Source of the DNA: Actinomycetota bacterium
Lineage (GTDB): Bacteria; Actinomycetota; CADDZG01; JAHWKV01
Assembly (NCBI GenBank): GCA_035759705.1
Contig: DASTUJ010000138.1
Coordinates: forward strand, 87-64,086
Direction of reading: 5' to 3'
Length of the DNA: 64,000 nt
This document shows positions 35,029 through 56,819 of the stretch, piece after piece (positions within the stretch are counted from its first letter, which is position 1; every line of letters begins with the position of its first letter). The notes beneath the pieces are model-generated. The model saw only the letters and a program-made list of their open reading frames with translations. It had not been told where the DNA came from and made no database searches. Made by a program: the position numbers and the translations under genes.

Positions 35029-35769
35029 GTGATGGGTCTCTTTCCTCTGGCTGCTGCACTGGTAAGCGGCACATTCTCAGCCTCACTCCTCCGCCAGTTT
35101 GCCCGCCGGCGTGGTCCTCACCAGCTGGCCTGGGGCATCGCGCTGGGCACCTTTGCCGCCGCTTCGGTGTTTGCCGCGGTGGGCATGCTCGCCGGCTGGT
35201 CCGGTTCCATCTTCCGGTTGTACTATCTGTTCGGCGCCCTGGTAAACGTGCCGATACTGGCTTTGGGTACCCTCTATCTCTATTTCCCGCGCCGGGTGGG
35301 CCACCTGGCGGCACTTTTGGTGGCGGCGGCATCGCTTTACGGCGCGGTAGCAGTTATGTCGGCCGAACTGGTCGAGGCGCCGCTCAGGATCTCGGGCGCG
35401 ATCCCCATGGGCTCAGAGGTCATGGCCCCCGCCGTCCGTGCGCTGTCCCGCTACTACTCCTACGCCGGCTTCCTGATCGTCGTGGCCGGTGCAATCTGGT
35501 CGGCGGTGAAGCTCGCACGCAAGCCGGGGGAGCGGTTCAAGCGACTGGCGCAGGGTAACGGCCTGATCGCCGCAGGGACTGTCGTGGTGGCGCTGGGAAG
35601 CGCCTTCGCCCGGCAGGGCCAGGGAACGGTGTTTGCGGTGGGCCTGGCGGTGGGCGTGACGGTCATGTACCTGGGGTTTCTCCGCACGAGCACGCCGCCC
35701 GGCCGAAAGGCGGCTGTTGCCGAGGCGCAGGGCGCGGTGGTGGCGACCAATGGTTCCTCGGGAGGTTAG
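35029..35769 (+). CDS. Hypothetical integral membrane protein
   Basis: 246 aa with about 6 TM helices and no recognised motif. Confidence 0.5.
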   Translation: MMGLFPLAAALVSGTFSASLLRQFARRRGPHQLAWGIALGTFAAASVFAAVGMLAGWSGSIFRLYYLFGALVNVPILALGTLYLYFPRRVGHLAALLVAAASLYGAVAVMSAELVEAPLRISGAIPMGSEVMAPAVRALSRYYSYAGFLIVVAGAIWSAVKLARKPGERFKRLAQGNGLIAAGTVVVALGSAFARQGQGTVFAVGLAVGVTVMYLGFLRTSTPPGRKAAVAEAQGAVVATNGSSGG

Positions 35770-35819: not shown

Positions 35820-36560
35820 GTGGCTGACGCCTCGGTCGGGCTGCCGATCGCCTTTATCGCCGGGGCCGCTTCCTTCCTCTCTCCCTGCGTACTTCCCCTG
35901 CTGCCCGGCTACCTCTCCTACATGTCAGGGATGTCGCTGGAGATGGTGCGGGAGGGCAACGCGCCGGTCCGCCGGCTGCTCGGGCCGACTCTGTTGTTCG
36001 TTGCCGGCTTTTCGACCATCTTCGTTGCCCTGGGGACCTCGGCCAGCCTGGCCGGCTCGCTTTTGAGGGACCACCAGCTGATCCTGACCCGTATTGCAGG
36101 CGTGCTGGTCATTCTGATGGGGCTGGCTTTCATGGGCCTGCTGCCGCTCCCCTTCCTCTATCGGGAGAAGCGCCTGGACATGAGGCGGGGGCGCACCTAC
36201 ACCGGCAACTACCTGATGGGCCTGAGCTTCGGGCTCGGGTGGACTCCCTGCATCGGCCCGACCCTCGGCGCGACGCTGGTCATCGCCTCCCAGGCGGACC
36301 GGGTGGGGGAGGGGGCGCTCCTGCTGTTCGTGTACTCGCTGGGTCTCGGCATTCCGTTCGTGTTGTCGGCGCTCGGCGTGTCCCGGCTCACCGGGGCCCT
36401 CGCCTTTTTCCGCAGCCACCAACAGGCGATACTGCGGGTAAGCGGAGGGCTGCTGGTGGCGTTCGGGCTGCTCCTGTTCTTCAACCGGGTGTACGTGATC
36501 TCCGCCTGGATCCAGCGGGGGATGGACGCAGCGGGCCTGGAGGAGCTGATAGGCATATGA
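35820..36560 (+). CDS. ccdA: Cytochrome c-type biogenesis protein CcdA (DsbD-like thiol-disulfide transporter)
   Basis: The two conserved Cys are present in SPCVLPLLPGYL and GWTPCIGPTLG. Confidence 0.9.
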   Translation: MADASVGLPIAFIAGAASFLSPCVLPLLPGYLSYMSGMSLEMVREGNAPVRRLLGPTLLFVAGFSTIFVALGTSASLAGSLLRDHQLILTRIAGVLVILMGLAFMGLLPLPFLYREKRLDMRRGRTYTGNYLMGLSFGLGWTPCIGPTLGATLVIASQADRVGEGALLLFVYSLGLGIPFVLSALGVSRLTGALAFFRSHQQAILRVSGGLLVAFGLLLFFNRVYVISAWIQRGMDAAGLEELIGI

Positions 36561-36793
36561 GCGACGTGGTCCTTTACACGAAGCCGGGCTGCTGCCTGTG
36601 CGACGACGCAAAAGCGGCCCTGGAGAGGGCCGGCATCGGGTTCCGGGAGGTGGACATCAATCGGGACCCCGGCTTGTTCGCCGAGTACGGCATCCGCATC
36701 CCCGTGGTGGAGGTCGGCGGTGTGCCTGCATTCGAGGCGGGGATGAACCCGGACGAGATTGCGGAACTGGTGGACGAGGCGCGGGGCCTCTAG
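36557..36793 (+). CDS. Glutaredoxin-like protein (NrdH/GlrX-like), translationally coupled to ccdA
   Basis: An ATGA overlap joins it to ccdA. CCLCDDAK is a CxxC in a thioredoxin-fold context (LYTKPGCCLC...VPVVEV). Confidence 0.8.
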   Translation: MSDVVLYTKPGCCLCDDAKAALERAGIGFREVDINRDPGLFAEYGIRIPVVEVGGVPAFEAGMNPDEIAELVDEARGL

Positions 36794-36802: not shown

Positions 36803-36836
36803 ACAAAAAGGCCCGGCCGGGTGGCCGGGCCTTTCG
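36803..36836. terminator. Bidirectional hairpin terminator (AAAAAGGCCCGGCC-GGGT-GGCCGGGCCTTT)
   Basis: A 9-11 bp GC stem between two convergent genes, flanked by an A-run and a T-run. Confidence 0.65.
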
Positions 36837-36850: not shown

Positions 36851-37894
36851 CTAAGCGATCTGAGGCTGGGTCAGCCGCGCTTCCTTCTCGATCTTCGAAA
36901 CGCCGATCAGGTGGGCGATCATCAGGATCACGCTGATCGCCAGGTAGATGAACGCCGGCACCCGTACCGATCCCCGGACCCGCACTGCTGCGACCAAGGC
37001 ATCGTCCGGAGCGCCCGGCTGTCCGGTCATGTCCAGTGTGGCGAAAGGCACGTTCGGCTTGATGGCGTCGTCCTTGCGGAATCCGTAGTCGATGAGCTTG
37101 CCGGTCTTGTCGGCGTTGAGCGTGATGGTCTGGCCCTCGGCGTCGACCTCGAGAATGGGCATTCCCGGAGTCACATCCGTGCCTTCCTCGACCAGGAACT
37201 CCTTGACGGTGCCCTCGGCTTTGCCGCCCAGGTCGCCGGACATCATCTGCTCGATTGCGACCGCCCGGCCGACTGCGAGGACGGAGTCCTTCCCGGCCAC
37301 GTCGACTTCCTTCATCCTGACGTCGGTGGTTGAGAACTTCTCAGGGTCGAGTGCGATGTCGCCCTTGGTCATGTCCTCGACCGACTCGACGACACCGGGG
37401 ATGGGGCTCGTGGCCTCCATCACCAGCGCCTCCATTACCGGGTCGGCGTTCTCCAGCTCGGAGGCCAGGTCGTCGCCCCCTTCGAGGTCGGCCAGGTGGA
37501 CGTCCTCCTCGGGCTCCTCCCAGCCTTCGCCGTCGGGGTAGTCCGCGGTGTCCCAGGTTCCCCACCGGGTGTCGACCTCGTCCAGCTCAGGACCGACCGC
37601 CGCCGGATGCCATGCGGTGTCCGTTCCCAGATCACCCCAGAAACCAGCTTCACCCTTCGGGCCAAGGCCCGTGGCGAACCAGATGGCCGAAAGAAGCGTC
37701 ATCACCGCAAACAGGCAGGCGCCGGTTACGAAGTAGCCGAGCTTGGCACCCAGGATCATCGACGTAAGCAGCCAGACGCTGCCCACGAAGACGACGATGA
37801 ACGCGATGGTGATTGCAATCCCCTTGATGAAGGTACCGCTGCCTCCGGAGGTCGCGGCCTCGGTAGCGAGTAGTGCGATGTCGGAGGTATTCAA
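36851..37894 (-). CDS. Hypothetical membrane protein at the end of the cytochrome b6c operon
   Basis: Three N-terminal TM helices, an acidic Glu/Asp-rich periplasmic region, then a lipoyl/hybrid-motif-like beta segment and a C-terminal TM helix. Confidence 0.55.
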   Translation of the reverse strand: MNTSDIALLATEAATSGGSGTFIKGIAITIAFIVVFVGSVWLLTSMILGAKLGYFVTGACLFAVMTLLSAIWFATGLGPKGEAGFWGDLGTDTAWHPAAVGPELDEVDTRWGTWDTADYPDGEGWEEPEEDVHLADLEGGDDLASELENADPVMEALVMEATSPIPGVVESVEDMTKGDIALDPEKFSTTDVRMKEVDVAGKDSVLAVGRAVAIEQMMSGDLGGKAEGTVKEFLVEEGTDVTPGMPILEVDAEGQTITLNADKTGKLIDYGFRKDDAIKPNVPFATLDMTGQPGAPDDALVAAVRVRGSVRVPAFIYLAISVILMIAHLIGVSKIEKEARLTQPQIA

Positions 37895-37920
37895 CGGCTT
37901 GCTCCCAATCCGAGAAGCAT

Positions 37921-38841
37921 CTACAGGCTCCTCTCGTAATCCACAACCAATTGGATCTGCTCATCGGTGAGGGTTCCGCCCCAGGCGGGCATCGCTCCGG
38001 TGCCCTGGCCGGACGTGCCGTAGGGCTGTCCGGGCTTGGAGCCTTCCTTCACGAAGGTCTTGTGATCTTCGATGTTCGGGAACATCGCCGACTCGGACCC
38101 ACCCTTCATCGCAGGACCGGATCCTCCGGCGCCGCCGATACCGTGGCAGGTGGAACAGAACTGGGTGAAGATCTGGTCGCCGGTGGCGCCCTCCTCCACC
38201 TCCGCCTCCTGCTGGATGCTCTCGAGCCAGTTGACGATGTCGTCAAGCTCCTGCTCGGTCAGAGGGCCGCCGTACTCGCCGCCCCATGTGGGCATGTCGG
38301 TTCCCGGGCGTCCACGTTCGATGGTCTCGCGGATGTAGGCGCGGGCATCCTCGAAGCCGGGAGGCGGCTCCTCGTAGCGGGCGAACACGGTCTTGAGCTC
38401 GGGCACCTGCACGATGGATCGGGTCCCGGTGTCCGGGTTGAGGAACTCGTTGGTTCCGCCCTCGGCACCCTCGCCGTGGCAGCGGGCGCACTCCTTGCCC
38501 TTCGAGTTGGTGGCTCCGGTCTGCTGGTTGGTGGTCAGGGCGTAGTACTCCTCGCCCCGCTCGAGCGACTCCTCGGCAAACTCCTTTTCGTTGTCCAGGC
38601 GGTTCTGGGGCTCCTGCACCCAGTAGGCCGGCATGAAGAAGGCAAAGAACAGCGTGAGGGCCAGGCCCCAGCCGTGGATCTTGGTTAGGCGTGACGACTC
38701 CAGCACTGCGTCGATGTCTGCCGGCCTGAGGGCCGGGGGCACCTTCGACTTGTTGCCGGATCCCGAGCGCGTCCTGAGCACAACCAGGGCGGCGCCGGCG
38801 GCAATGCCTCCAACTAGAACTGCGATAAGTAGCTGACCCAT
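37921..38841 (-). CDS. qcrC: Di-haem cytochrome c (QcrC-like)
   Basis: An N-terminal TM anchor and two CxxCH motifs (CARCHG, CSTCHG). Confidence 0.9.
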   Translation of the reverse strand: MGQLLIAVLVGGIAAGAALVVLRTRSGSGNKSKVPPALRPADIDAVLESSRLTKIHGWGLALTLFFAFFMPAYWVQEPQNRLDNEKEFAEESLERGEEYYALTTNQQTGATNSKGKECARCHGEGAEGGTNEFLNPDTGTRSIVQVPELKTVFARYEEPPPGFEDARAYIRETIERGRPGTDMPTWGGEYGGPLTEQELDDIVNWLESIQQEAEVEEGATGDQIFTQFCSTCHGIGGAGGSGPAMKGGSESAMFPNIEDHKTFVKEGSKPGQPYGTSGQGTGAMPAWGGTLTDEQIQLVVDYERSL

Positions 38842-38878
38842 GATCTCCTGCTAACTTGCTGTTCGAACGGTCAAAGTT

Positions 38879-39580
38879 TTAGGCGGTAACGCAGTGAGCC
38901 CCTTCAGGCTGCGGCTGCGTGGTGATGGTTCCCCGGGGGGCTCCGGCGATGATGGTGGCGGTGTCGACGATGATCTCGCCGTCCACCACCTCGACCCTGA
39001 ACTGGTCGAGGCTGCGAGGCGCCGGGCCATCCCGGTACTCGCCGTTCACGGAGTACTTCGAGCCGTGGCACGGGCACTCGAACCACTTTGCGGGCGGGCA
39101 CCACGGAACGCTGCAGCCCAGGTGAACGCACTTGCGGTAGAGGGCCATGAAGCCGGAGACATCGACGTTGGCTGCCTTGTAGGCGGGAACGTCGGCCGCG
39201 TCGGCCGGGTCGCCTTCGTACAGGGTCAGGTAGAAACGGCCGTCCGGGATGAACTTGGGCTCCCGGCTTGCGAGCTCGGCGCGAAGGTCGTCCTCGTTGC
39301 CGACGGTGATCTTCGAGCCGAATCCGCCCCGCAGGCGGGGGTACAAAAAGTCGATGGAGGCCAGGGCGAACTGCCCCAGGAAGGCGAGGGAGGCAAACCC
39401 TACGCCCCGCAGGAGGAACTTGCGGCGGCCGACGTCGGTGACGTCGGAAACCGGCTGTACCTCGAGCTGGCCTTCGGTGACCGCGCCGGCTTTGCGGCTG
39501 CGGGCGCCGATGAGAGCAAAAGGAATCCAGGCCAGAAGAGAGGCCAGGGCAATGATGAGGGCGAACTGAATAGGTGTCAT
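38879..39580 (-). CDS. qcrA: Rieske [2Fe-2S] subunit
   Basis: CVHLGC and CPCHGS Rieske boxes. The start ATG at 39580 overlaps the upstream gene by 4 nt. Confidence 0.9.
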   Translation of the reverse strand: MTPIQFALIIALASLLAWIPFALIGARSRKAGAVTEGQLEVQPVSDVTDVGRRKFLLRGVGFASLAFLGQFALASIDFLYPRLRGGFGSKITVGNEDDLRAELASREPKFIPDGRFYLTLYEGDPADAADVPAYKAANVDVSGFMALYRKCVHLGCSVPWCPPAKWFECPCHGSKYSVNGEYRDGPAPRSLDQFRVEVVDGEIIVDTATIIAGAPRGTITTQPQPEGAHCVTA

Positions 39581-40425
39581 AGCTCGAAAAATATCCCCGC
39601 GTCCCATGGGTAGACAAAGTTGAATCCAGGGCCTCTCATGATCGACCCTAGCATGCCGAGAATTGCGAACATGAGCATGAAGATGGTCCACATCGAGATG
39701 GCCAGCTTCCGGTCACCGGGCTTGTTGGACGGGTTCCGGTCGATGTACGGCGTTGCCATCAGGCCCAGGATGAGCCACTGCGGAATCGAAACGCCCGCCA
39801 CCTGCGGGTGGAAGTAACGAAGCAGCTCCTGCAGTCCGAGGAAGTACCACGGCGCCTTGGAGGGGTTCGGTGTGACGTTGATGTTGGCAAGCTCACGAAG
39901 CTCGGCGTTCACAAAAACGGAGACGATGGTCAGAAGCGCAGTTACCGCCAGAACGGCGAGGAACTCGCCCGCCATCAGGTGCGGCCAGGTGTTGACCCGG
40001 TCGATGGGCTCCTTCTCGACTCTCTGGATAGATTCCGGCTTGACGACCGCCAGCAGACGCTGCAGACGCTCGGGAGCGGCGTCGCCGGCCCCTACGCCTG
40101 CCCTTGCCGCCGCCCTGCGTCCACCGGCGGCCGGAGCCGCAGCAGGAGGGGCGGCTGCCGGAGCAGAGGCGGCGGCAGCAGCCGGAGCAGCAGCTACGGC
40201 TGCGGGCTCGGGTGCCGAAGCAGCAGCAGCCGCGGGTTTCTCGGCAGACTCATCAGCGGCAGCGGGCTTGTCAGCAGCAGGAGTCTTGGGAGCTCCCCCG
40301 CCTGCAGCAGCCTTCTTGGCGCGGTGCCGTGCAGCCTTGGCTCGAGCCTCGGCAACCGCCGGGGATGAGCCCTTGGCATTTTCTTCGGCCAGCGTCTGGT
40401 CGAATATTTCGTCAGGAGTGGGCAT
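39577..40425 (-). CDS. Cytochrome b6f subunit-IV-like (cytochrome b C-terminal half) with long Ala/Pro-rich N-terminal extension
   Basis: The C-terminal ~150 aa correspond to the PetD/cytochrome-b C-terminal helices (PWYFLGLQELLRYF, ISMWTIFMLMFAILG). It is preceded by a ~120-aa low-complexity Ala/Pro/Lys region. Confidence 0.8.
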   Translation of the reverse strand: MPTPDEIFDQTLAEENAKGSSPAVAEARAKAARHRAKKAAAGGGAPKTPAADKPAAADESAEKPAAAAASAPEPAAVAAAPAAAAASAPAAAPPAAAPAAGGRRAAARAGVGAGDAAPERLQRLLAVVKPESIQRVEKEPIDRVNTWPHLMAGEFLAVLAVTALLTIVSVFVNAELRELANINVTPNPSKAPWYFLGLQELLRYFHPQVAGVSIPQWLILGLMATPYIDRNPSNKPGDRKLAISMWTIFMLMFAILGMLGSIMRGPGFNFVYPWDAGIFFEL

Positions 40426-40459
40426 CAGTTCGTCCTAGTCCGTCGTGGAGTGGTGCAGA

Positions 40460-41251
40460 TCATAGTGGTCCCGAAATTCCGCCGTCCTTGCGGACTCGCC
40501 AGAAGTGCACGGCCATCAGCAGCGTGATGACAAACGGCAGTGCAAGCACGTGCAGCGTGTACCAGCGGATCAGAGTCCCGGCACCGATCTGAACGCCTCC
40601 GAGAAGGATGAACGAGACCTCTTTACCAACCAGCGGCGACTCGTAACCCATCTGTGTGCCGACGGTGACCGCCCAGATCGCCAGCTGGTCCCAGGGCAGC
40701 AGGTAGCCGGTAAAGGCCAGGAGCAGTGTGAGGAGCAGCAGAACGACTCCGATGACCCAGTTGAACTCCCGCGGCGGCTTGTAGGAGCCGGTGTAGAAGA
40801 CCCGGGACATGTGCAGGAAGACGGTGACGACCATCAGGTGGGCGCTCCAGCGGTGCATGTTTCTCACCAGCTGGCCGAACGCCACCGAGGTTGCCAGCCC
40901 GACCATGTCGGTGTAGACGACCTCGGTCGAGGGCCGGTAGAAGAACATCAGGAAGATTCCGGTGATCGTCAGGAAGATGAACAGGAAGAAGGAAAGGCCG
41001 CCCAGACACAAGGTGTACGAGAGCTTGATTCCGTGCCGCTTCACCTTCACCGGGTGGAGGTGGTACAGGACGGAGTTCATGATCACGTAAGCGCGGTTAC
41101 GTGGGGAGTCCTGGTATCCCTTCGTCAGGACCGATCCGGGCCTGAAGATGGAACGCCAAACCTGGCCGCCTCTCAGGCCGTCCCAAGCACCCTTTGCCAG
41201 AGCGCCCGGGTGGCGCAGGCCACCAAGCTTTTCTTTCAGATTTGCCGCCAA
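40460..41251 (-). CDS. qcrB: Cytochrome b6-like (split cytochrome b N-terminal half)
   Basis: Four-helix haem-binding core with conserved His pairs ([33 protein letters not shown]). At 263 aa it has b6 length rather than that of a fused cytochrome b. Confidence 0.9.
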
Positions 41252-41276
41252 CCCGTTCTCCTTGTGTCTTAGGTTG

Positions 41277-41690
41277 CTACGAAGTTGCGCCGGAAACCTT
41301 GCCCATCGCCCTCGCCGGAGCCTTCTGGGCCTCCAGCCTGCCGATGGTCAGCGCCCCCGTGGGACACCTTTCAACGCACAGCAGGCACCGGGTGCACGCA
41401 TCGTCGTCAATCACGAACAAAATGTCATTGGCTTTCATGTCCCGGGCTATCTCTTCCGAGCCGGCCTCCGCAACGATGTTGGGAGTGAGCATGAAGATGC
41501 AGTACCAGGGGCAGATGTCGACGCAGCCCTCGCAGAGAATACACAGTTCGGGAATGAGCCCGATGTACCGGGGCGGCTTGCGTACGGACTTGACCCAGGA
41601 AGCTTCGACGTCCTGCATGACGTAGTCGGTGCGCAGGCGCGGCTTCTCAATGTCGTTCTTCTCGCTAAACGGATCCTGCGGGTATGTCAT
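41277..41690 (-). CDS. 2x[4Fe-4S] ferredoxin-domain protein
   Basis: [12 protein letters not shown] and [12 protein letters not shown] cluster motifs. Confidence 0.8.
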
Positions 41691-42031
41691 TTCCCGGGGA
41701 GGTATCCCTTAACGCCCTCGCTGCCCCTGAGGCCGAGGCGCCGGCGGCGCTTCTCACCCAGGATGTAGGTCGCAGCTACGGGAATTGCAAAAATGAAGGT
41801 CTGGACGCCCATGGTGATCGCATCGTGGATGCGAACCAGGGTGTAGGGGTCCTTGAACTCGATGCCCGAGACACTCTTGATGAACGCCGCGATGGACTCG
41901 GAGTTTCCGTCCCAGGCGTAGCGGAACATCGACGGCAGAAAACCCAGGGTCACGATCAAAATTCCCGTGATGATCGTGGACAGGATGATCGCCCGGACCC
42001 AGGTCATCGGCTTGTCAGTTTGTTTGCTCAA
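41687..42031 (-). CDS. Small hypothetical membrane protein (possible accessory subunit)
   Basis: 114 aa with two TM helices. It is translationally coupled (4-nt overlap) to the ferredoxin gene. Confidence 0.5.
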   Translation of the reverse strand: MSKQTDKPMTWVRAIILSTIITGILIVTLGFLPSMFRYAWDGNSESIAAFIKSVSGIEFKDPYTLVRIHDAITMGVQTFIFAIPVAATYILGEKRRRRLGLRGSEGVKGYLPGK

Positions 42032-42145
42032 AGTAAGTGGTTCCCTCTTTGGTCTGTTCCGCCGTTCGGTTCGTGTGTCGGCGTCGGGCGCATTATAGCC
42101 GACGGTCCTGGCGACACTTCGGCCACTAACTGCACAGCCGACACT

Positions 42146-42295
42146 CTACTTTGCCGCGCCCTTTTTTTCAGAAGCCCGCAACTCGTCGATGCGCTTTTCG
42201 AGCGCCCGCTGACGCCTGGAAACCGAAAAAAGAAACATAACAATCGCCGCAAAAACCAGCAGATAGGCGAGTCCCAGAAAGCCGAGGCCGTCCAT
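42146..42295 (-). CDS. ccmD: Haem exporter protein CcmD-like (49 aa)
   Basis: MDGLGFLGLAYLLVFAAIVMFLFSVSRRQRALEKRIDELRAS... is a single TM helix plus a basic/coiled tail, immediately downstream of ccmC. It is missed by the ORF track (below 60 aa). Confidence 0.55.
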   Translation of the reverse strand: MDGLGFLGLAYLLVFAAIVMFLFSVSRRQRALEKRIDELRASEKKGAAK

Positions 42296-42332
42296 GTCAG
42301 GCCCGGGGGGTGCGGCGGCAGATGTTCACGGG

Positions 42333-43052
42333 CTAAAGACTACCCGCAGCGCGGTGGGTTATGACCGCGTTCTCCAAAGAGTCGCTCTCGAGCTCCATGA
42401 CCTCGTCCTCCAGCTTGATCACCCTGACCCCCAATGCAAGCAGGACCAGGTACAAAAGCGTGAAGACCGCGAACATCAGGACCAGCACGATCTGCATCTC
42501 CGGCGGCAGGGCGGCCGAGGCTTCGGGGCGGATCACGGTGCGGGACGGGTGCTGGCCCCGCCACCAGTCGACCGAGAAGTGCACGAGCGGCACCACCATG
42601 AACCCTGCGATGCCGATGACCGCGCCGATGCGGGCGCCCCGGGTCTCGTCGCTGGCGTTCGCCCGGAAGGTCAGGTACCCGAGGTAGATGAGAAACAGGA
42701 CGAGGGTCAAGGTGAGCCGGGGGTCCCACGCCCAGAACGCCCCCCAGATGGGCTTCCCCCACATGGCGCCGGTGATCAGCGTGATGCCGGTGAAGAGAAC
42801 CCCGACCCTGGCACTGCCCTGGGCGACCCAGTCCCAGCGGGACTCGGAGGTCTTGAGGTAGGCGACCGAGCAGGCCAGAACCACCCCGAACGCCAGGTAG
42901 GCGACCCATGCGGACGGCGCATGGACGTAGAGGATCCGCTGCGACACGCCCTGGAAGGCCTCGGTGGGAACCCAGAAGAAAATTAGGGCCAGGCCCGTCA
43001 GGAACGCGGCGGCCAGAATCGTTTGCGTGAGCTGGAGTGGGTCTTTTTTCAT
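42333..43052 (-). CDS. ccmC: Haem exporter protein CcmC
   Basis: Has the WWD domain WAWDPRLT and conserved His residues. Confidence 0.9.
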   Translation of the reverse strand: MKKDPLQLTQTILAAAFLTGLALIFFWVPTEAFQGVSQRILYVHAPSAWVAYLAFGVVLACSVAYLKTSESRWDWVAQGSARVGVLFTGITLITGAMWGKPIWGAFWAWDPRLTLTLVLFLIYLGYLTFRANASDETRGARIGAVIGIAGFMVVPLVHFSVDWWRGQHPSRTVIRPEASAALPPEMQIVLVLMFAVFTLLYLVLLALGVRVIKLEDEVMELESDSLENAVITHRAAGSL

Positions 43053-43753
43053 TCCTCGATCACAAATTCGAAGGTCACGGCTCCGAGAGTCAGGAAGATC
43101 ACGTCGAAGACTGCCAGAAGGATAAACCAGCGCAGTTCGTTACCGAACCCGTTCTCGATCAGAAGCGTGGAGGTGAGCTTGGAGGCTCCCAGGATCACCG
43201 GCAGGGTCAACGGGAACGTGAGCAGCGGCAGCATGAGCGACCGGGCCTCCGCATGCTGGGTGGCTGCGCCGAACAGGGTGCCCACCGCGGCCATTCCCAG
43301 GCTGGCCACAAGCATCACCGGAAGGATCTGCGGGAACAGCGACCCCGGCGCGATGTTGGCGAAAAGCATAAAAAGCGGGATTGCAACCATCTCGGTTGCC
43401 AGCAGAAAGGCCACGTTGGCAATCAGCTTGCCGGTGTAGAGGGCGGCGGGGTCCACGGGGGCGAGGAGCAGACCGTCGGCGGCCGAGGTCTCGCGGTCCG
43501 CCGCAGCGCTCCTTCCAAACCCGATGACCGCAGCGAAAAAGATGCTGGTCCACAGCAGCAGCCCCGTTATGTCCCGGGCCGACAGGGCGCCGGCGACCGG
43601 CACCGGCACCGGGGCCCTGAGGGCGCCCGGCGGCAGGGCGAAGGTCAGCAGGAAAACCAGGCAGAGGGCGAATACCAGCATCACCGGGGCGATCTGCCTG
43701 GCCCGCGACTCACCCCTCAGGTCCTTCGCGGCCAGCGCCAGCACAGTCCTCAA
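43049..43753 (-). CDS. ccmB: Haem exporter permease CcmB
   Basis: A 234-aa 6-TM ABC-2-like permease, overlapping ccmA and ccmC by 4 nt each. Confidence 0.85.
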   Translation of the reverse strand: MRTVLALAAKDLRGESRARQIAPVMLVFALCLVFLLTFALPPGALRAPVPVPVAGALSARDITGLLLWTSIFFAAVIGFGRSAAADRETSAADGLLLAPVDPAALYTGKLIANVAFLLATEMVAIPLFMLFANIAPGSLFPQILPVMLVASLGMAAVGTLFGAATQHAEARSLMLPLLTFPLTLPVILGASKLTSTLLIENGFGNELRWFILLAVFDVIFLTLGAVTFEFVIEE

Positions 43754-44352
43754 ACGAGCCGCCCTCCGTCCAGGTCCACGAGCCGTCCGGCGATCTGCAT
43801 CGCCTTCGCCCGGTCGTGCGTGGTGAGCAGCGTGGTCCTCCCGGGCCGGGAGATCAGCGCGGGGAGCCCGCCGGCGCTCGCCTCGTCCAGCCCGGAGAAG
43901 GGCTCGTCGAGCAGGAGGATGTCAGGGTCGTGCAGCAGGGCCCGGGCCAGGCCCAGCCTCTGTGACTCCCCGCGGGAGAACGTGCGGACCAGCGCGCTGC
44001 CCTTGTGCTCGAGGCCCACCTGCTCCAGCAGGCCCGGCACCTTCGCCCGGTCGACCCTGTACAGGTCGGCGTAGAACTGCAGGTTCTCCGGTGCCGACAG
44101 GTACCGGTAGAGGAAAGGCTCGTGCCCGAGGTACCCGATCTGCGCTTTGGCGTTCCGGGGTGCCCTGCCGGCGAGGGTTACGGTTCCCGAGGTCGGCTTC
44201 AACAGCCCGGCGGCGATCTTGAGTAGGGTCGACTTACCGGAGCCGTTGGCGCCGAGCAGGGCGACGGTCGCCCCCTCTTCGATCTCGAGTGTGAGGTTGC
44301 TCAACGCCCGGACCCGGCCGAACTTCTTGCTGACGCCGTCGAGGACTATCAC
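43750..44352 (-). CDS. ccmA: Haem exporter ATPase CcmA
   Basis: Walker A GANGSGKST, signature FSRGESQRLGLA, and Walker B LLLDEPFSGLD. Confidence 0.9.
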   Translation of the reverse strand: MIVLDGVSKKFGRVRALSNLTLEIEEGATVALLGANGSGKSTLLKIAAGLLKPTSGTVTLAGRAPRNAKAQIGYLGHEPFLYRYLSAPENLQFYADLYRVDRAKVPGLLEQVGLEHKGSALVRTFSRGESQRLGLARALLHDPDILLLDEPFSGLDEASAGGLPALISRPGRTTLLTTHDRAKAMQIAGRLVDLDGGRLV

Positions 44353-44362
44353 CGGTGGGGGG

Positions 44363-45583
44363 TCAGCTGTCCGCCGGAGCGCTCAGCCGGGCGAGAAGAG
44401 CCGCACGCTGGGATTCGTAGTCGTCCTTCTCGATCGCCCCCGACTCGAATAGCTCGTCCAGCTCGGCGATCTGTTCGATCAGGACCTCGCGGGTGGGCCG
44501 GTTCGGCTGAGGTGCGGGGGCAGCCGGCTTTCCGGCCGCCGCTTTGGCCGCCCTTCTGCGGCGCATCCGGACCGTAGCCAGGCCGAGCAGAAGCGCCAGC
44601 ACCGCGACCCCGGCGGCGAAACCGATCCACACCCCGTCGGTGCCCTCATCGGGGAAGCCGATGTCGGCCTCGATCACCGAGCCGGGGTTCAGCTCTCCGC
44701 TGCGGTAGCGGTTGTACGACTCGCCGCCGAGCGTTTTGGACTCCTCGAACTCGAACCCGGGCGCAGCGGTCAGCACCAGCCGTTTGCCGATGAGCAGGTC
44801 GGCGTGCTCGGTCGGGTGGTAGACCTCGCGCCGCAGCTGCCAGCCGGTTCGGGGGACCTTGACCTTGAACAGGTAGGCGACCGAGGCCTCGCCGGGCGGG
44901 AAAGCCGAGGTGGTGACCAGACGGCCCTCCCCGGACGTGGCCAGCCCGGCGCCGTTGGCGGCGTCGGCCGGCGCCAGGTCGTAGGCCGACTCGGGGACCG
45001 GGAGCTTCAGAACCTGCCTCTGCTGAGGAGCCGGCGACCCGGCTGGGCTCGGTTCCGGCTCCGCCTGGTCCGACTCGGAGCCGATGAAGGCGCGGTCGGA
45101 GTCGTTTTGGTACCTGAGCAGCTGGAGCACCTCCAGGACGTTGCCCTGGCCCTCCTCGGTGTTCTGGAGGACGGTCATGGAGTCCGAGGTGATCTTCACC
45201 ACTGACACATCGTCGGTGGTCTCGTAGATCTTCAGCTCGACCGGGTCGGTCCGGCCGGCCTCGACCACCTGGCTGTAGGCGACCCCTCCGTAGAACAGGC
45301 CGACCAGGTGGCTCTTTGCCGGGTCGGCCTCGAAGGTGAACGAGCCGTCGGCGGCGACCGGTGCAAAAACCGGCTGCCCCTGAGGAACGCCTTCGTCGTC
45401 GTTCTGCAGAACCGTGATCCGAAGGTCTCCGGGGAGTGCGGCCCCGGCGGTCCCCATAACCACCCGGCCGGGTGTCGCCGCCAGGGCAACTCGCGGCAGG
45501 GCGAGGACGGCGAACGCCAGCAGGGCTACCGCTGCGGCCCGCCGGTTGATCGAACGACTGGATGGTTCGGCCGGAAGGATCAC
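44363..45583 (-). CDS. Hypothetical exported, C-terminally membrane-anchored protein within the ccm operon
   Basis: A signal peptide, an about 300-aa beta-rich ectodomain, a TM helix (VWIGFAAGVAVLALLLGLATV), then a charged tail (EKDDYESQRAALLARL). Confidence 0.6.
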   Translation of the reverse strand: MILPAEPSSRSINRRAAAVALLAFAVLALPRVALAATPGRVVMGTAGAALPGDLRITVLQNDDEGVPQGQPVFAPVAADGSFTFEADPAKSHLVGLFYGGVAYSQVVEAGRTDPVELKIYETTDDVSVVKITSDSMTVLQNTEEGQGNVLEVLQLLRYQNDSDRAFIGSESDQAEPEPSPAGSPAPQQRQVLKLPVPESAYDLAPADAANGAGLATSGEGRLVTTSAFPPGEASVAYLFKVKVPRTGWQLRREVYHPTEHADLLIGKRLVLTAAPGFEFEESKTLGGESYNRYRSGELNPGSVIEADIGFPDEGTDGVWIGFAAGVAVLALLLGLATVRMRRRRAAKAAAGKPAAPAPQPNRPTREVLIEQIAELDELFESGAIEKDDYESQRAALLARLSAPADS

Positions 45584-45924
45584 TTCTTGCGCAGGCGGGC
45601 CCGTGCGGCCTGGATCTCCGCCTCGAGGGTCGCCTGCTCGCTTTCCGCCTCGGCCTCGCCCTCGAGCTCCCGGATGATTCCCAGGGCCTCGGCCTTGCTC
45701 TGCCGACGGAGCTGGACGTAGTCCTCGTCGTCCATCTTCCCCATCTCGTGGTCGAGCTCCAGGTCCAGGATCGACCGGTAGACGCTGGACTTCTCCTCCA
45801 GAAGGTCGGCCGTGCGTCGATCTTCGGCCGGCCCCCGAAGGGCCCGGCGGCGCCCCAGGAGCGGCCTCACGATCCAGGCGACGGCAGCGGCCACGACCAG
45901 CCCCACCACTACCTGCTCGATCAT
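45580..45924 (-). CDS. Small TM plus coiled-coil protein in the ccm operon (hypothetical)
   Basis: MIEQVVVGLVVAAAVAWIVRPLL is followed by a Glu/Asp-rich helical tail. An ATGA overlap couples it to the upstream gene. Confidence 0.5.
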   Translation of the reverse strand: MIEQVVVGLVVAAAVAWIVRPLLGRRRALRGPAEDRRTADLLEEKSSVYRSILDLELDHEMGKMDDEDYVQLRRQSKAEALGIIRELEGEAEAESEQATLEAEIQAARARLRKK

Positions 45925-46393
45925 TCCGATCCCCGCTTGAAGTTCTTGAAGTCCCTGTCGAACAGCTTTTCGTCCTGTTCGCTCAACTCGGGCACCGTCG
46001 CACTGGGCTCGGGCCCGGCCTCCCCGCCGCCGGTCCGGCGCCGGAGGAAGAGCATCACCACGCCCAGCCCCGCCAGCACGGCCAGGGGAGGGGCGACCCA
46101 GGCCAGCGAACCGCCTGGCCGGGCGAGGGCGACCTCGCCGAAGTTGTCGACTATCCACCGGTCGATCTCGGCGTTGGTGTCGCCCCGGCGAACCATCTCG
46201 TCCACTTCGGCCCGCAGCCGGCTGGCCTGGTCCGAGGGGCACTCGTCAAGAGTGAGGCCGGGGCAGAAGGGCGACATCATGCGGCCGGCGACCTCGTCGG
46301 AGGTGGGGACCGCGTCGGGGTCGGGACCGGAGGTGAGAGCCACTCCCAGCGCCAGGCCGCCGAGAACGGCTATGGCCGCCAGGGGCCACACCC

Positions 46394-46397
<4 letters not shown>
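45921..46397 (-). CDS. ccmH: CcmH-like cytochrome c biogenesis protein
   Basis: A signal peptide is followed by MMSPFCPGLTLDECPSDQASRLRAEVDEMVRRGDTNAEIDRWIV, which matches the CcmH LxCPxC...DLRxEV...I..W region. A C-terminal TM helix is present. Confidence 0.65.
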
Positions 46398-48391
<1,994 letters not shown>

Positions 48392-48415
48392 GGCCCTAAC
48401 CTCCTGCGGGTGACG

Positions 48416-48829
48416 CTAGCCTTCTGAGGCCAGCTTGGCTTCCATCTTCGACGGGCACTTGACCAGGACGCTGGAGGCGGAGAACGCCTCGTCCGCCATT
48501 GCTCCTTCGGCCACGACCTCGACGTCGTCGGCGAAGGTGTCGGGCAGAGCGTCCTCGGTGGTCACGTCGACCGATGACGACCCGTCGGAGACCGCGAAGC
48601 GAGTGGTGGTCCCGGCCGTCTCTATGGAACCGGGCACGACCTTACCGGCAACCCGCACGGAGCGGTTGCCGTCAAAGCTCCCGGAGGTCAGCTCCGAGGG
48701 CGTTCGGTAGTAGGCCGTGGTTCCCGAAAGTGACCAGACGATCAATCCGACGATTGAGGCCACGATCACTCCCGCGGCCAGAAGAAAGCGTTTTGACGCG
48801 GACATGGGCGTCATTATCCCATCGTTCAA
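48416..48829 (-). CDS. ccmE: Haem chaperone CcmE, Cys-variant
   Basis: An N-terminal TM anchor and an OB fold (VRVAGKVVPGS). The canonical haem-binding HxxxY is replaced by C-P-S-K-M (VLVKCPSKMEAK). Confidence 0.8.
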   Translation of the reverse strand: MNDGIMTPMSASKRFLLAAGVIVASIVGLIVWSLSGTTAYYRTPSELTSGSFDGNRSVRVAGKVVPGSIETAGTTTRFAVSDGSSSVDVTTEDALPDTFADDVEVVAEGAMADEAFSASSVLVKCPSKMEAKLASEG

Positions 48830-48934: not shown

Positions 48935-50260
48935 ATGGCGGAATACGACGCAATTGTCGTCGGTGCGGGCCCGGGAGGCTCCGCCGCCGCTTACTGGCTG
49001 GCGGCGGCCGGGCTCAAGGTCGCCCTGCTGGAGAAAAAGGCGCTGGGCCGGGACAAGGTCTGCGGTGACGGCCTCACCCCCCGCGCCACCAAGGCGCTGG
49101 TCGACATGGGCGTGCGGCCTGCCACCGAGTCCTACCACCGGATCAGGGGCCTCAGGGTTCTGGGCGCCGGCCGGGAGATGGAGCTGGACTGGCCCACCCT
49201 CAGCAACTTCCCGGCCAACGGCCTGGTGGCCGCCCGTGCGGTGCTGGACGCCGACATCACCCGCCGGGCGATCGAGGGTGGCGCCGAGCTGTTCGAGATG
49301 ACCGAGGCCGTCGAGCCGGTCCGCAACGGCAAGACCGTGGTCGGCGTGAAGTGGGTCCGCAAAGAGGCCGCCGAGGGCGGGGGCGTGGTCAAGGCCGAGG
49401 AGGGCACCTTTATGGCGCCGTTCACCGTGGTCGCCGACGGCGCCTCGTCGTCGTTCGGGCGCGCTCTCGGCATCCGGATGGACCCGAGCTACCCGCTGGG
49501 GCTCGGCATCCGGGCCTACTACGAAACCGATCGGTCGAGCGACGACTTCATCGAGTCCTGGCTGGAGCTGCGCAAGGACGACCTCCTACTGCCTGGCTAT
49601 GGGTGGCTGTTCCCGCTGGGCGACGGAACGATGAACGTGGGCGTCGGGCTGCTGCAGACCTCGAAGAGGGACCTGAACGTCAACCTCAGCCGGCTGCAGC
49701 ACGACTTCATCGACTGCCTCCCCAAGTCCTACGGCATCACCCACGAGACCGCCACCGGCCCCTACAAGTCGGCCCGCCTTCCTCTGGGACTGAGCGTACG
49801 CAAGCCCTACGGCGACGGCTTCTTGTGCATCGGCGACGCCGCCGGAATGATCAACCCGTTCAACGGGGAGGGGATCGACTACGCCCTGGAAACCGGCAAG
49901 CTCGCCGCCGGGATGATCAGTGCGGCGCTGGCCCGGGGCGACTCCACCGAGCTCGGTGACTACCAGACGGCCCTGACCGACATCTACGGCGGCTACTACC
50001 GGCTGGGCCGGCTGTTCCTCCGGATGATCAGCAAGCCCGAGCTGTTCCGCCTGATGTGCGGCATCGGCATGCGTTCCGAGTCGGTGATGGCCTTCGCCCT
50101 GCAGGTCCTGGCAAACCTCGGCGAGGAGCACGGCGGCAGGATGGCCGACCGGGCCTTCCGCGGGCTGGTCCGGGTGGCGGAGAAGGGCCTCGAGGAGTAC
50201 ACCGACCCGGAAATACCCACCCCGAACGGGGTTAAGGAAAAGGTCTCCGCCCGTTCATAG
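48935..50260 (+). CDS. Geranylgeranyl reductase family FAD-dependent oxidoreductase
   Basis: The FAD fingerprint is DAIVVGAGPGGSAAAYWLA. Family motifs are GDAAGMINPFNGEGIDYAL and FLCIGDAAG. Confidence 0.85.
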   Translation: MAEYDAIVVGAGPGGSAAAYWLAAAGLKVALLEKKALGRDKVCGDGLTPRATKALVDMGVRPATESYHRIRGLRVLGAGREMELDWPTLSNFPANGLVAARAVLDADITRRAIEGGAELFEMTEAVEPVRNGKTVVGVKWVRKEAAEGGGVVKAEEGTFMAPFTVVADGASSSFGRALGIRMDPSYPLGLGIRAYYETDRSSDDFIESWLELRKDDLLLPGYGWLFPLGDGTMNVGVGLLQTSKRDLNVNLSRLQHDFIDCLPKSYGITHETATGPYKSARLPLGLSVRKPYGDGFLCIGDAAGMINPFNGEGIDYALETGKLAAGMISAALARGDSTELGDYQTALTDIYGGYYRLGRLFLRMISKPELFRLMCGIGMRSESVMAFALQVLANLGEEHGGRMADRAFRGLVRVAEKGLEEYTDPEIPTPNGVKEKVSARS

Positions 50261-51763: not shown

Positions 51764-52132
51764 GTGCCGGACGGCTATTTCGGTTCATATCTAACCCTGG
51801 CGATCTACTCCCTGGCCATGATCGGCCTGGTGGGTGGCACCCTTGGGCTCAACCGCCTGGTTTCCCCCAAGGTGCCCGGCAAAGAGAAGATGACGACCTA
51901 CGAGAGCGGCGTCGACCCCATCGGCAGCGGCCAGAGCCAGACGACCATCCGCTACTACATGTTCGCCCTGCTCTTCGTCATCTTCGACGTCGAAGCGGTC
52001 TTCCTCTTCCCCTGGGCAGTGGTCTTCGAGGAGATCGGGTTGTTCGCCTTCGTCGAGATGATGATCTTCATTCTCATCCTCGCCCTGGGCCTGCTCTACG
52101 CCTGGCGCAAGAAGGTGCTGGACTGGATTTGA
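51764..52132 (+). CDS. nuoA: NADH-quinone oxidoreductase subunit A
   Basis: Three TM helices and the conserved YESGVDP plus FDVE(A/I)VFLFPW motifs. The start is GTG. Confidence 0.9.
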   Translation: MPDGYFGSYLTLAIYSLAMIGLVGGTLGLNRLVSPKVPGKEKMTTYESGVDPIGSGQSQTTIRYYMFALLFVIFDVEAVFLFPWAVVFEEIGLFAFVEMMIFILILALGLLYAWRKKVLDWI

Positions 52133-52193
52133 GAGCTTTCCCAGCACGGCAGGCCACTTCCGCTTCACCGAAAATTTCCCGTAAGGAGCGCTG

Positions 52194-52739
<546 letters not shown>

Positions 52740-53225
52740 CCGGCGGGTTTCCGACAAGATCGGGGACCTTGCCACCGGTATAGAGGTTAAATACGGGCAC
52801 ATCTGGGCGACGGTTGAACCGGCGCGCATTGTCGACGTCGTGACCACCCTCAAGACCGACCCGGACCTGCTGTGCAGCTACCTGACCTTCCTATGTGGTG
52901 TCGACTGGGAAGCCGAGGGCTTCGAGGTTGTGATCACCCTCTACTCGGTCACCAACGAGAACACCGTGATCCTGCACGTGCCGCTGGGGGCCGGCGCCAC
53001 CATGCCGACCCTGACCGGCGTATTTCGGAGCGCCAACTGGCACGAGCGTGAGGCCCACGAGATGTTCGGCATCAACTTTGAGGGCCACCCGAACCTGGTG
53101 AAGCTCTACCTGCCCGAGGACTTCGTGGGGCACCCCCTTTTGAAGAGCTTCAAGCTGGCCAGCCGCACCTACAAGCCCTGGCCCGGCGCTAAAGACCCAA
53201 GTGAAGCTGCAGGCGGAGGTCGCGG

Positions 53226-54386
53226 ATGAGCACCCTCATCCCCACCACCGACAAGTGGCTGACCGAGGCGCGCCTCTCCGGCGGCGGCACCCTGCGCACC
53301 GAGGAGATGGTGCTAAACATCGGCCCCCAGCACCCGGCGACCCACGGAGTTCTTCGGGTGGTGGTCACCCTGGACGGCGAGAAGATCGTCGACGCCGTCC
53401 CGGTCATCGGGTACATGCACCGGGGCCACGAGAAGCTTTTCGAGCAGCGGGACTTCCGCCAGATCACGAACCTGTGCTCCCGGATGGACTGGCTCTCCGG
53501 CATCAACAACGAGATCCCGGCGTCGCTGGCGGTCGAGAGGCTGATGGAGCTGGAGGTTCCCCGCCGGGCGACCTACCTCAGGGTGATCATGGCCGAGATC
53601 AACCGGATCCTGAACCACCTGATGTTCACCGGGTCGTTCGGCCTGGAGCTCGGCGCCACCACCCCGGTCATGTACGCCTTCCGCGAGCGGGAGCTGCTGC
53701 AGTCGGCCATGGAGATGGCCACCGGCGGGCGCCTGCACTTCGGTTTCATCCGCCCGGGCGGGCTGAAGGAGGACGTGCCGCGGGGGTTTGTCGACCTGGC
53801 CCTTAGAGGCATCCGCCAGCTGCAGCGGGCGATCCCGGACTACGAGGACCTGCTGATCGGCAACGAGATCTTCAAGGCACGCACGGTCGGAGTCGGCGTC
53901 CTGGATCCAGACCTGGCGATCGAGTACGGCGTGTCCGGCCCGATCCTCAGGGCCAGCGGGGTTCCCTACGACGTCCGCAAGGCCGAGCCGTACCTGAACT
54001 ACTCGGAGTTCGACTTCGACATCCCGGTGGGGGTGCAGGGCGACTCGTTCGACCGCTACTGGGTGTTGATCCAGGAGATGAAGGAGTCGGCGAAGATCGT
54101 GGAGCAGGCCCTGCAGGGGCTGCCCTCCGGCTCGCACATCGGGCAGGTCCCGAAGCGGCTGACCATCCCGAAGGGGGCCATCTGGGCCAAGGCCGAGAAC
54201 CCGCTGGGCGAGCTCGGCTACTACATAATCTCCGACGGCGAGGCCAAGCCCTACCGCATGAAGGCCCGGACGCCCTCGTTCTCCAACATATCGGTCGTCC
54301 CGCACATGCTCCGGGGCGCCTACGTGCCGGACATGGTTGCCGTGCTCGGCAGCATGTTCTTCGTGGTGGGGGACATCGACCGTTGA
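53226..54386 (+). CDS. nuoD: NADH-quinone oxidoreductase subunit D
   Basis: GPQHPATHGVLR, RMDWLSG and C-terminal PHMLRG...VLGSMFFVVGDIDR blocks. Confidence 0.95.
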   Translation: MSTLIPTTDKWLTEARLSGGGTLRTEEMVLNIGPQHPATHGVLRVVVTLDGEKIVDAVPVIGYMHRGHEKLFEQRDFRQITNLCSRMDWLSGINNEIPASLAVERLMELEVPRRATYLRVIMAEINRILNHLMFTGSFGLELGATTPVMYAFRERELLQSAMEMATGGRLHFGFIRPGGLKEDVPRGFVDLALRGIRQLQRAIPDYEDLLIGNEIFKARTVGVGVLDPDLAIEYGVSGPILRASGVPYDVRKAEPYLNYSEFDFDIPVGVQGDSFDRYWVLIQEMKESAKIVEQALQGLPSGSHIGQVPKRLTIPKGAIWAKAENPLGELGYYIISDGEAKPYRMKARTPSFSNISVVPHMLRGAYVPDMVAVLGSMFFVVGDIDR

Positions 54387-55396: not shown

Positions 55397-55405
55397 GAGA
55401 CCGTT

Positions 55406-56023: not shown

Positions 56024-56024
56024 C

Positions 56025-56510: not shown

Positions 56511-56513
56511 CGC

Positions 56514-56819
56514 ATGCCTTTGAACTGGGTCCTGGTCCTCACCACCTTCCTTTTCTGCGTGGGTGTCTACGGCGTGCTCGCCCGGCGGAACGCCGTGATC
56601 GTGCTGATGTCGATTGAGATCATGCTGAACGCGGTCAACCTGAACTTCATCGCCTTCAACGGCGCGCTCGAGGGTGAGCGGCTGATCGGGCAGGTATTCG
56701 CCCTGTTCGTGATCGCCATCGCCGCCGCCGAGCTGGGCGTCGGCCTGGCCATCGTCCTTTTGATCTACCGCAACAGCTTCACGGTTTCGCTGGATGAGGT
56801 GAACCTGCTCAAATGGTGA
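56514..56819 (+). CDS. nuoK: NADH-quinone oxidoreductase subunit K
   Basis: 101 aa with three TM helices and the conserved ...[11 protein letters not shown]...[11 protein letters not shown] block. Confidence 0.9.

Follow-up and report, generated by a model that had tools for sequence, protein, structure and literature searches.

The stretch analysed here, 64,000 nt of contig DASTUJ010000138.1 from an uncultured soil bacterium of the Actinomycetota (hereafter the window), carries on its minus strand a chain of 16 co-directional genes at 36851-48829. We consider it probable that this block, found in an uncultured lineage, joins two functional modules head to tail: a complete variant of System I for maturing cytochrome c (48829-42146) followed by a b6c-type oxidoreductase (42031-36851). 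The genes were called with guidance from GC3 (GC content at third codon positions) combined with Pfam and NCBIfam profile searches, and in the direction of transcription they read ccmE, ccmF, ccmH, a gene for a CcmI-N-like protein, p406, ccmA, ccmB, ccmC, ccmD, tm114, ferredoxin, b6, subunit IV, Rieske, di-haem c and p347. An earlier note on this DNA had described such a block over the same interval, and the family matches bear out both the block and the identities given to its genes. That note counted 17 genes, one more than we find: a 74-aa open reading frame (ORF) at 42028-42252 is spurious, and as a candidate ccmD it was rejected for its odd sequence and lack of a family match, the real ccmD being a 49-aa ORF in another frame. 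The 4-nt overlaps described in the note (ATGA/GTGA/TTGA) occur at seven junctions; elsewhere the genes are separated by gaps of 10-37 nt, with a single exception between ccmD and tm114, where the gap measures 138 nt to the tm114 ATG and 114 nt to an upstream TTG.

Judged by its sequence, the first module is a variant System I with a Cys-type CcmE, an altered CcmH, a shortened CcmI and an extra protein, p406. It shares with the canonical system (E. coli CcmABCDEFGH; Thermus CcmF, 6zmq) the CcmA, B, C, D, E, F and H families and the WWD motifs of CcmC and CcmF, so that the haem-delivery module CcmA/B/C/D is present with its CcmC signature. CcmF, in which the WWD motif reads WGGYWAWD, aligns over its full length to 6zmq (1.2e-110) with the HP, FLH, VHTF and VH positions conserved. 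The cassette departs from the canonical system in several ways. In CcmE of the window a Cys replaces the haem-binding His of HxxxY (His130) and a Met replaces the Tyr (Tyr134), and the motif KCPSK[M/F] is kept in all five lineage CcmE proteins examined, with Met in the window and in related locus L081 and Phe in loci L001, L083 and L084. When the best 150 CcmE representatives out of 1.84 billion proteins were surveyed, about 126 were Cys-type (83 CxxxY, 40 CxxxF, 2 CxxxM) and 10 were His-type. The CcmH-family protein has two conserved cysteines spaced C-x7-C (SPFCPGLTLDECPS) instead of CxxC, a motif kept in 6 lineage members; against solved CcmH structures it gave no sequence match, and the correspondence of the cysteines was judged by eye. 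CcmI is reduced to its N-terminal part, encoded at the same position in every lineage context, the window encodes no CcmG, and the gene order is EFH...ABCD. A Cys-type CcmE with KCPSK also characterizes the variant System I of archaea and Desulfovibrio, in which, unlike here, the residue four positions after the Cys is Tyr rather than Phe or Met. According to PMC9084895, CXXXY-type CcmE is functional in Desulfovibrio and Methanosarcina, the 2006 variant System I was defined by the lack of CcmH (Allen 2006, Goddard 2010, cited therein), and archaea lack CcmH, CcmD and CcmI alike, whereas a CcmH-family protein, CcmD and a CcmI-like protein are all present here.

The extra protein of the cassette, p406, matched no family above cutoff. 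Its AlphaFold2 model (pLDDT 79.9) predicts that an anchor or signal at the N-terminus is followed by two beta-sandwich domains outside the cytoplasm, a transmembrane helix and a cytoplasmic SHOCT-like tail, and it yielded generic beta-sandwich matches only (OST1/ribophorin, pilins, T-cell receptor) at TM-scores of 0.30 or less. The protein contains no cysteines, which rules out a thiol-redox role. We found 34 homologues: those that are named are all called 'hypothetical protein', all 6 with a taxon label come from Actinomycetota metagenome-assembled genomes (MAGs), and one is present in each of the eight ccm contexts compared below. A 100%-identical p406 lies between the same neighbours on 13 contigs of different samples (at NCBI, a hypothetical protein of an 'Actinomycetota bacterium' MAG). 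We infer that p406 may stand in for the missing apocytochrome-binding part of CcmI.

The second module opens with tm114, whose gene overlaps that of the ferredoxin by 4 nt (translational coupling) and whose orthologues stand upstream of the ferredoxin gene in all three b6 clades discussed below. The ferredoxin, having neither signal peptide nor transmembrane helix, is predicted to be cytoplasmic. The note had proposed a cytochrome b split in b6f style, with a 263-aa b6 and a subunit IV carrying an Ala/Pro-rich extension of about 120 aa, preceded by a ferredoxin and followed by a di-haem cytochrome c, and each of these elements holds (PF00033, PF00032, 1vf5_A; Fer4 families; two CxxCH). Cytochrome b6 aligned end to end with cyanobacterial b6 (1vf5_A) at 1.8e-45, whereas bc1 cytochrome b gave 1e-30 and mycobacterial QcrB about 6e-23. 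Its four His ligands are conserved, aligned with His86, His100, His187 and His202 of haems bp and bn, and CLGG at residue 82 brings a Cys into line with b6 Cys35, the attachment site of haem cn; a covalently bound haem cn is thus probable. The core of subunit IV aligns to b6f subunit IV (1q90_D/1vf5_B) and to the C-terminal half of cytochrome b. Its N-terminal extension is composed of a conserved head (PTPDEIFDQTLAEENAKGSSPAVAEARAKAARHRA), an Ala/Pro linker and a conserved segment ahead of the transmembrane region (ERLQRLLAVVKPESIQRVE), and is kept (the region of residues 1-140) in relatives including L054, L007, L025, L035 and L052; in Acidimicrobiales the head is a duplicated IPEHLxKRAxEARxKA motif. 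This extension may be a cytoplasmic docking element. The Rieske protein is nearest to the PetC type (NF010001, 71.8 bits, vs 30 bits for QcrA_actin with a cutoff of 275; 2zt9_D, 3.2e-16). The di-haem cytochrome c, the sole CxxCH protein found when the window was scanned for this motif, is not orthologous to actinobacterial QcrC (QcrC_actin, 16 bits, cutoff 200). In p347, residues ~216-283 form a lipoyl/biotinyl-like barrel in which the position of the modifiable Lys reads VDAEG, and the barrel is probably not lipoylated. It is an insertion specific to the ccm-linked lineage, the System II relatives described below having a shorter orthologue.

This module can be compared with several known types of complex. 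Like the cyanobacterial and chloroplast b6f complex (PetB, PetD, PetC) it has a split cytochrome b, a homologous subunit IV core and a Rieske protein closest to PetC, and the end-to-end alignment of b6 includes the C-terminal ISGPL, the four His and the Cys35 equivalent within CxGG. Unlike b6f, it belongs to a non-photosynthetic organism, has a long N-terminal extension on subunit IV, and comes with a ferredoxin and with 2- and 3-transmembrane-helix proteins as extra subunit candidates. In place of cytochrome f (PetA) and PEWY it has a di-haem class I cytochrome c and an APWY Qo motif, and the complex is therefore of b6c type in the APWY clade, not b6f proper. Kao & Hunte (2014; PMC4122944) described this clade over several phyla, with no member characterized as of that paper, and reported split cytochrome b for Rubrobacteridae and Ilumatobacter coccineum, Ilumatobacter being among five split actinobacterial pairs that cluster in the PEWY-cyt c or APWY clade. 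According to Dibrova et al. (2017; PMC5600118), short cytochromes b bearing CxGG are associated with cytoplasmic FeS oxidoreductase subunits. The APWY clade, or subfamily G, which includes the anammox complexes, resembles the present module in its APWY, its short b6 with CxGG, its cytoplasmic FeS association and its spread, which takes in Actinobacteria; similarity to the Rieske proteins of the anammox bacterium Kuenenia (9rk3, 9rk4) points the same way. It differs in having a large NAD(P)-binding FeS oxidoreductase where we find a small 2[4Fe-4S] ferredoxin, and a multi-haem where we find a di-haem c subunit. With QcrCAB of Mycobacterium and Corynebacterium the module shares the phylum, a di-haem cytochrome c built in as the way out for electrons and additional anchoring of the Rieske N-terminus in the membrane; unlike it, it has a split rather than a fused long QcrB and a different gene order. 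The QcrA_actin and QcrC_actin scores given above lie far below their cutoffs, and QcrB structures match less well than b6.

From what is established for these families we infer a working model. CcmABCD would load haem onto the Cys-type CcmE, and CcmF, together with the non-canonical CcmH, the CcmI-N-like protein and probably p406, would attach it to extracytoplasmic CxxCH sites, the acceptors being the di-haem c and the c domains of oxidases. CcdA, convergently encoded next door, would pass reductant outward. The b6c complex would act as a menaquinol:cytochrome c oxidoreductase that oxidizes menaquinol at the APWY Qo site: the first electron would leave through the Rieske protein and the di-haem c to an oxidase, and the second would travel over haems bp, bn and cn to a quinone on the n side. 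The tm114 protein, the ferredoxin and p347 are class-specific candidates for extra subunits or assembly factors. The b6 module is probably ancestral to the class and keeps what is best read as its own promoter, and the ccm module fills the slot between a geranylgeranyl-reductase-like gene and the b6 module.

Table 1. Features of the block and its immediate flank, in window coordinates.
Feature	Position	Strand	Basis and remarks
ccmE, Cys-type haem chaperone	48416..48829	-	PF03100 3.5e-23; ...VLVKCPSKME; likely start ATG 48805
ccmF, haem lyase / holocytochrome c synthase core	46394..48391	-	CcmF_C 1.2e-65; Cytochrom_C_asm 1.2e-34
ccmH-family protein	45921..46397	-	PF03918 1.3e-14, 54 bits (cutoff 25); non-canonical cysteine spacing SPFCPGLTLDECPS
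CcmI-N-like coiled protein, 114 aa, one transmembrane helix	45580..45924	-	TIGR03142 24.3 bits, under 29.3 cutoff
p406, 406 aa	44363..45583	-	no Pfam or NCBIfam family above cutoff
ccmA, ABC ATPase	43750..44352	-	PF00005 2.4e-31
ccmB, ABC permease	43049..43753	-	PF03379 5.5e-14
ccmC, haem handling, WWD domain	42333..43052	-	PF01578 6.9e-35; WGAFWAWD
ccmD, 49 aa	42146..42295	-	TIGR04391 32 bits (cutoff 24); TIGR03141 27.5 bits (cutoff 25.95)
GCTATAATGCGCC, 13-nt conserved -10-like box	42087..42099	-	in ccmD-tm114 gap; comparative alignment
tm114, small protein with two transmembrane helices, basic tail (...RRRRLGLRG...GYLPGK)	41687..42031	-	no Pfam/NCBIfam match; probable start ATG 42007
2x[4Fe-4S] ferredoxin, 137 aa	41277..41690	-	Fer4 families; two C-x2-C-x2-C-x3-CP motifs; NuoI- and polyferredoxin-like
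cytochrome b6, 263 aa, short cytochrome b with four transmembrane helices	40460..41251	-	PF00033 4.1e-44
subunit IV, 282 aa	39577..40425	-	PF00032 1.9e-9; APWY Qo motif at residue 191
Rieske [2Fe-2S] protein	38879..39580	-	PF00355; CVHLGC...CPCH; extra N-terminal transmembrane helix; RRKFL Tat-like anchor
membrane-anchored di-haem class I cytochrome c (CARCH, CSTCH)	37921..38841	-	Cytochrom_C and CBB3 domains, two each
p347, three transmembrane helices, large acidic extracytoplasmic domain	36851..37894	-	weak Biotin_lipoyl match
intrinsic-terminator-like hairpin	36806..36835	-	13 bp, 9 GC, T-tail; strong; closes block after p347
glutaredoxin-like protein, 78 aa (CCLC)	36557..36793	+	PF05768 4.8e-15; overlaps ccdA stop codon
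ccdA (DsbD_TM thiol-reductant transporter)	35820..36560	+	PF02683 5.6e-16; two PC motifs; convergent with block

To see how widely the two modules occur, we scanned a collection in which each GTDB species is represented by a single genome for the b6 protein. It is encoded in more than 594 of them, and the best 80 of these relatives (67-84% identity) were compared, their loci being searched with the block proteins by tblastn. Nearly all 80 are titled Acidimicrobiia (Ilumatobacteraceae, Iamiaceae, Microthrixaceae, Aquihabitans), with two labelled Bifidobacterium. The cluster of ferredoxin, b6, subunit IV, Rieske and cytochrome c genes is present in 76 of them, often accompanied by a p347 homologue, which in many of the 80 lies 3' of the cytochrome c gene; the ferredoxin gene stands immediately 5' of b6 in 78. 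The b6-type complex is therefore ordinary for Acidimicrobiia and was already known at the sequence level, and its ferredoxin partner is a conserved feature of the class, not particular to this contig. By the same tblastn comparison, ccm genes together with a detectable tm114 were found only in the two closest loci, L001 and L002. A search with CcmF gave matches of 98-52% identity over the 120 protein clusters listed, all of them from the ccm-linked lineage; those with a name go back without exception to MAGs of Actinomycetota or Actinobacteria, one bearing the label Acidimicrobiia. Altogether eight ccm contexts could be compared: the window, L001, L002, L081 (CcmF identity 87%), L083 (65%), L092 (63%), L084 (53%) and L091 (53%). 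In all eight the order ccmE-F-H-I-p400-A-B-(...)-C-D followed by tm-Fd-b6-SUIV-Rieske-cc-p347 is kept (Fd, ferredoxin; SUIV, subunit IV; cc, cytochrome c), down to 53% CcmF identity. The cassette does tolerate interruption: in L084 (15415-17998) and L091 (15443-17568) ccmB and ccmC are separated by a Peptidase_M15_4 gene plus one or two other unrelated genes, and in L091 one of these is read from the opposite strand. These two loci also have a divergent caa3 oxidase operon, and L083 and L092 a divergent cbb3-type oxidase.

In a neighbour-joining (NJ) tree of b6 the ccm-linked loci form one clade beside the Acidimicrobiales clade. The pairing of System I with the b6 cluster is thus old and stably kept throughout an uncultured lineage, and the contig belongs to this lineage of Actinomycetota, allied to Acidimicrobiia. 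The assignment to Actinomycetota is further supported by actinobacterial signature regulators, namely a GlnR-type regulator (16777-17433, minus strand) next to glutamine synthetase (15400-16728, minus strand) and an RsiG-like protein (26075-26818, plus strand). A search of the available literature found no paper linking Acidimicrobiia with ccm or res genes, and the System I half is apparently a lineage-wide variant that was not previously published. The earlier note had allowed that the arrangement might be usual for its clade, and this is true in part: the split b6 cluster is the norm in Acidimicrobiia, published in 2014, but System I is specific to the lineage. A one-off acquisition of the linkage in this contig, which the note had left to be tested by phylogeny, does not fit synteny in eight of eight contexts and CcmF identities of 98-52% in the listed clusters.

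Reviews generally hold that Gram-positive bacteria mature their cytochromes c by System II. The note's view that System I is unusual here is borne out by three related loci, L065, L085 and L086, which have System II at the equivalent locus: ccdA-resB-resC divergently adjoins the same tm-Fd-b6-SUIV-Rieske-c cluster. These loci, of which L085 and L086 were found via the ResB of L065, represent a third b6 clade. Beyond ccdA-resB-resC they carry a caa3 oxidase operon, CtaG, a cupredoxin and a thioredoxin, and their flanks have in common with the window a SAM hydroxide adenosyltransferase and the glutaredoxin-like gene, the latter also found in L081. ResB was absent from 79 of the 80 best b6-related loci. 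System II does the same job as System I with non-homologous machinery; the window retains CcdA and contains no ResB-like sequence over its 64 kb. The Aquihabitans locus L054 shows the slot in another state, with a geranylgeranyl-reductase-like FAD gene, a monohaem cytochrome c gene alone in the slot, the tm-Fd-b6 cluster and then nuoA; in the window it is precisely the ccm cassette that separates the geranylgeranyl-reductase-like FAD gene (48935-50260) from tm114. Most simply read, maturation systems that are not homologous took each other's place beside the same client cluster. The present distribution of Systems I and II over the bacteria has been described as unexplained (PMC9145763), and sister lineages with the same client cluster and neighbourhood, one with System I and one with System II, offer a natural experiment on why cells switch. 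Nothing here is categorically new, every core component being from a known family. The System I version itself is unusual: its Cys-type CcmE has Phe or Met for Tyr, the cysteines of CcmH are spaced differently, CcmI is truncated, and a conserved membrane protein is new. Its client in aerobic soil and aquatic Actinomycetota, a b6-type complex that probably contains haem cn and has a ferredoxin dedicated to it, is encoded in hundreds of environmental species.

The only large gap of the block, between ccmD and tm114, contains the conserved 13-nt box GCTATAATGCGCC. The box is the same or nearly so in L081, L002 and L083 and occurs as a variant in L084, in intergenic DNA that otherwise does not align. 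The element GCTATAAT is found 790-890 nt 5' of the b6 start in L001, L002, L081, L083 and L092, and equally far from it in L065 and L085; since in these two System II relatives the genes upstream point the other way, the box would have to serve there as the promoter of the b6 cluster. It is best read as the predicted -10 element of the b6 cluster itself, kept after the ccm cassette came to lie upstream. A scan with the sigma-70 consensus gave one match, inside a gene and at chance level.

This bears on the model of the earlier note, in which the whole chain is one obligatory transcription unit coupling the maturation machinery to its client complex. The co-directional genes with their seven short overlaps, the order kept in 8 of 8 contexts and the position of the window's only CxxCH client inside the block are all in keeping with such a unit, and we still consider it unlikely, at least as the sole mode of transcription, because the respiratory genes have a promoter box of their own: the 114-138 nt gap holds the conserved GCTATAATGCGCC, which also precedes the b6 cluster in System II relatives. 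Most Acidimicrobiia, moreover, have the same cluster without ccm genes upstream, and the ccm part is not a rigid single operon, since L084 and L091 carry two or three unrelated genes between ccmB and ccmC. It is scarcely credible that the arrangement arose during assembly or binning, or that it came by very recent horizontal insertion into this contig alone. The ccm half is slightly more GC-rich than the b6 half (0.68-0.69 vs 0.62-0.65), but GC3 is uniformly high over the whole block, the order is repeated in 7 other independent assemblies (NCBI, JGI, Logan) including contigs of 327-567 kb, and the identical p406 recurs among the same neighbours on its 13 contigs; both artefact and recent transfer were rejected on this conserved synteny. 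The cassette could instead be a haem lyase dedicated to this complex only, in the manner of NrfEFG or of CcsA1/NrfI with NrfA, System II elsewhere in the genome serving general maturation. There is precedent in nrfEFG and in dedicated CcsA paralogues encoded with their clients, and both the tight linkage of cassette and client and the System II of the relatives would suit it. It is nevertheless improbable: the cassette comprises a whole set of components (A, B, C, D, E, F, H, I-like) and not a lyase paralogue alone, the ordinary CxxCH sites of the di-haem c require no special lyase, the window shows no ResB-like sequence, and in L083, L084, L091 and L092 the cassette also adjoins cbb3 or caa3 oxidase genes with c-type haem domains of their own.

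The function of the b6 module can also be read differently, as a Rieske/cytochrome b machine coupled to ferredoxin, with electrons passing between the bound 2[4Fe-4S] protein and haem cn where quinone binds on the cytoplasmic side. Such a machine would reduce menaquinone with ferredoxin or bifurcate the electrons of quinol between cytochrome c and ferredoxin. Beside b6 there is invariably the ferredoxin gene, itself coupled in translation to tm114, b6 has the CLGG haem-cn motif, the subfamily G short cytochromes b of anammox bacteria co-occur with cytoplasmic FeS/NAD(P) oxidoreductase subunits (PMC5600118), and the neighbouring nuo operon has no nuoEFG. All of this is evidence from gene context, however, relatives with the same ferredoxin have full nuo operons including nuoEF, and the ferredoxin could equally be an assembly or regulatory factor; we regard such a machine as rather unlikely. 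A bolder pair of proposals, that the ferredoxin and the 2-transmembrane-helix protein are true subunits that connect haem cn, where quinone binds on the n side, to cytoplasmic carriers of low potential, and separately that p406 and the altered CcmE, CcmH and CcmI are a Gram-positive adaptation of System I, has when taken jointly a similarly small chance of being right. If it were, the class-wide actinobacterial b6c complex would be a ferredoxin-coupled machine that could work with the adjacent NuoEFG-less NDH-1 in this lineage. For the preferred reading, a variant System I joined to a menaquinol-oxidizing b6c complex, several points weigh on the other side. The CcmI-like match scores below its cutoff (24.3 vs 29.3 bits), p406 has no informative homologue, and no thioredoxin-fold CcmG/ResA gene lies in the 64-kb window, yet L084 and L091 carry a thioredoxin-fold gene directly before ccmE. 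A second maturation system or a canonical qcrCAB may be encoded elsewhere in the genome, our search having spanned the 64-kb window. No terminator-like hairpin was seen between ccmD and tm114, so that read-through from a ccm promoter may occur beside the internal one. Finally, the b6 tree is a midpoint-rooted NJ tree of one protein and does not fix the direction of the swap between Systems I and II.

On its 3' side the block is closed by a strong hairpin, which may terminate in both directions, as its placement between two convergent gene sets suggests. The opposing set contains ccdA, which the note had placed next to the ccm genes; the gene is real and nearby, but it is no part of the co-directional block and lies on the plus strand, convergent with the block and outside its coordinates. 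Immediately 5' of ccdA, a 246-aa polytopic membrane protein with about 6 transmembrane helices and no family match (35029-35769, plus strand) might be part of the ccdA/glutaredoxin unit. Rfam and tRNA scans of the 64-kb window gave no matches.

Beyond the other end of the block lie nuoA-B-C-D-H-I-J-K-L-M-N (51764-61897, plus strand), 11 genes with no nuoE/F/G between nuoD and nuoH and thus no NADH-oxidizing module at that place. The nuo operon of L081 likewise lacks nuoE/F/G, and L083 and L092 have nuoE/F after nuoD. Genes for the NADH-oxidizing N-module may lie elsewhere, or a different donor may take its place. The nuo operon is followed directly by 61920-62885 (minus strand), which encodes a phage-lysozyme domain protein with two peptidoglycan-binding domains. 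In the region ~22500-26000, candidate ORFs all have about 0.70-0.77 GC at the three codon positions and no coding frame stands out; this may be low-complexity or repeat-rich coding sequence. Just before it, the gene at 20903-22471 (plus strand) encodes a protein of a kind unusual in bacteria, in which an HTTM domain is combined with a vitamin-K-dependent gamma-carboxylase lumenal domain (1.1e-84 and 1.6e-41).

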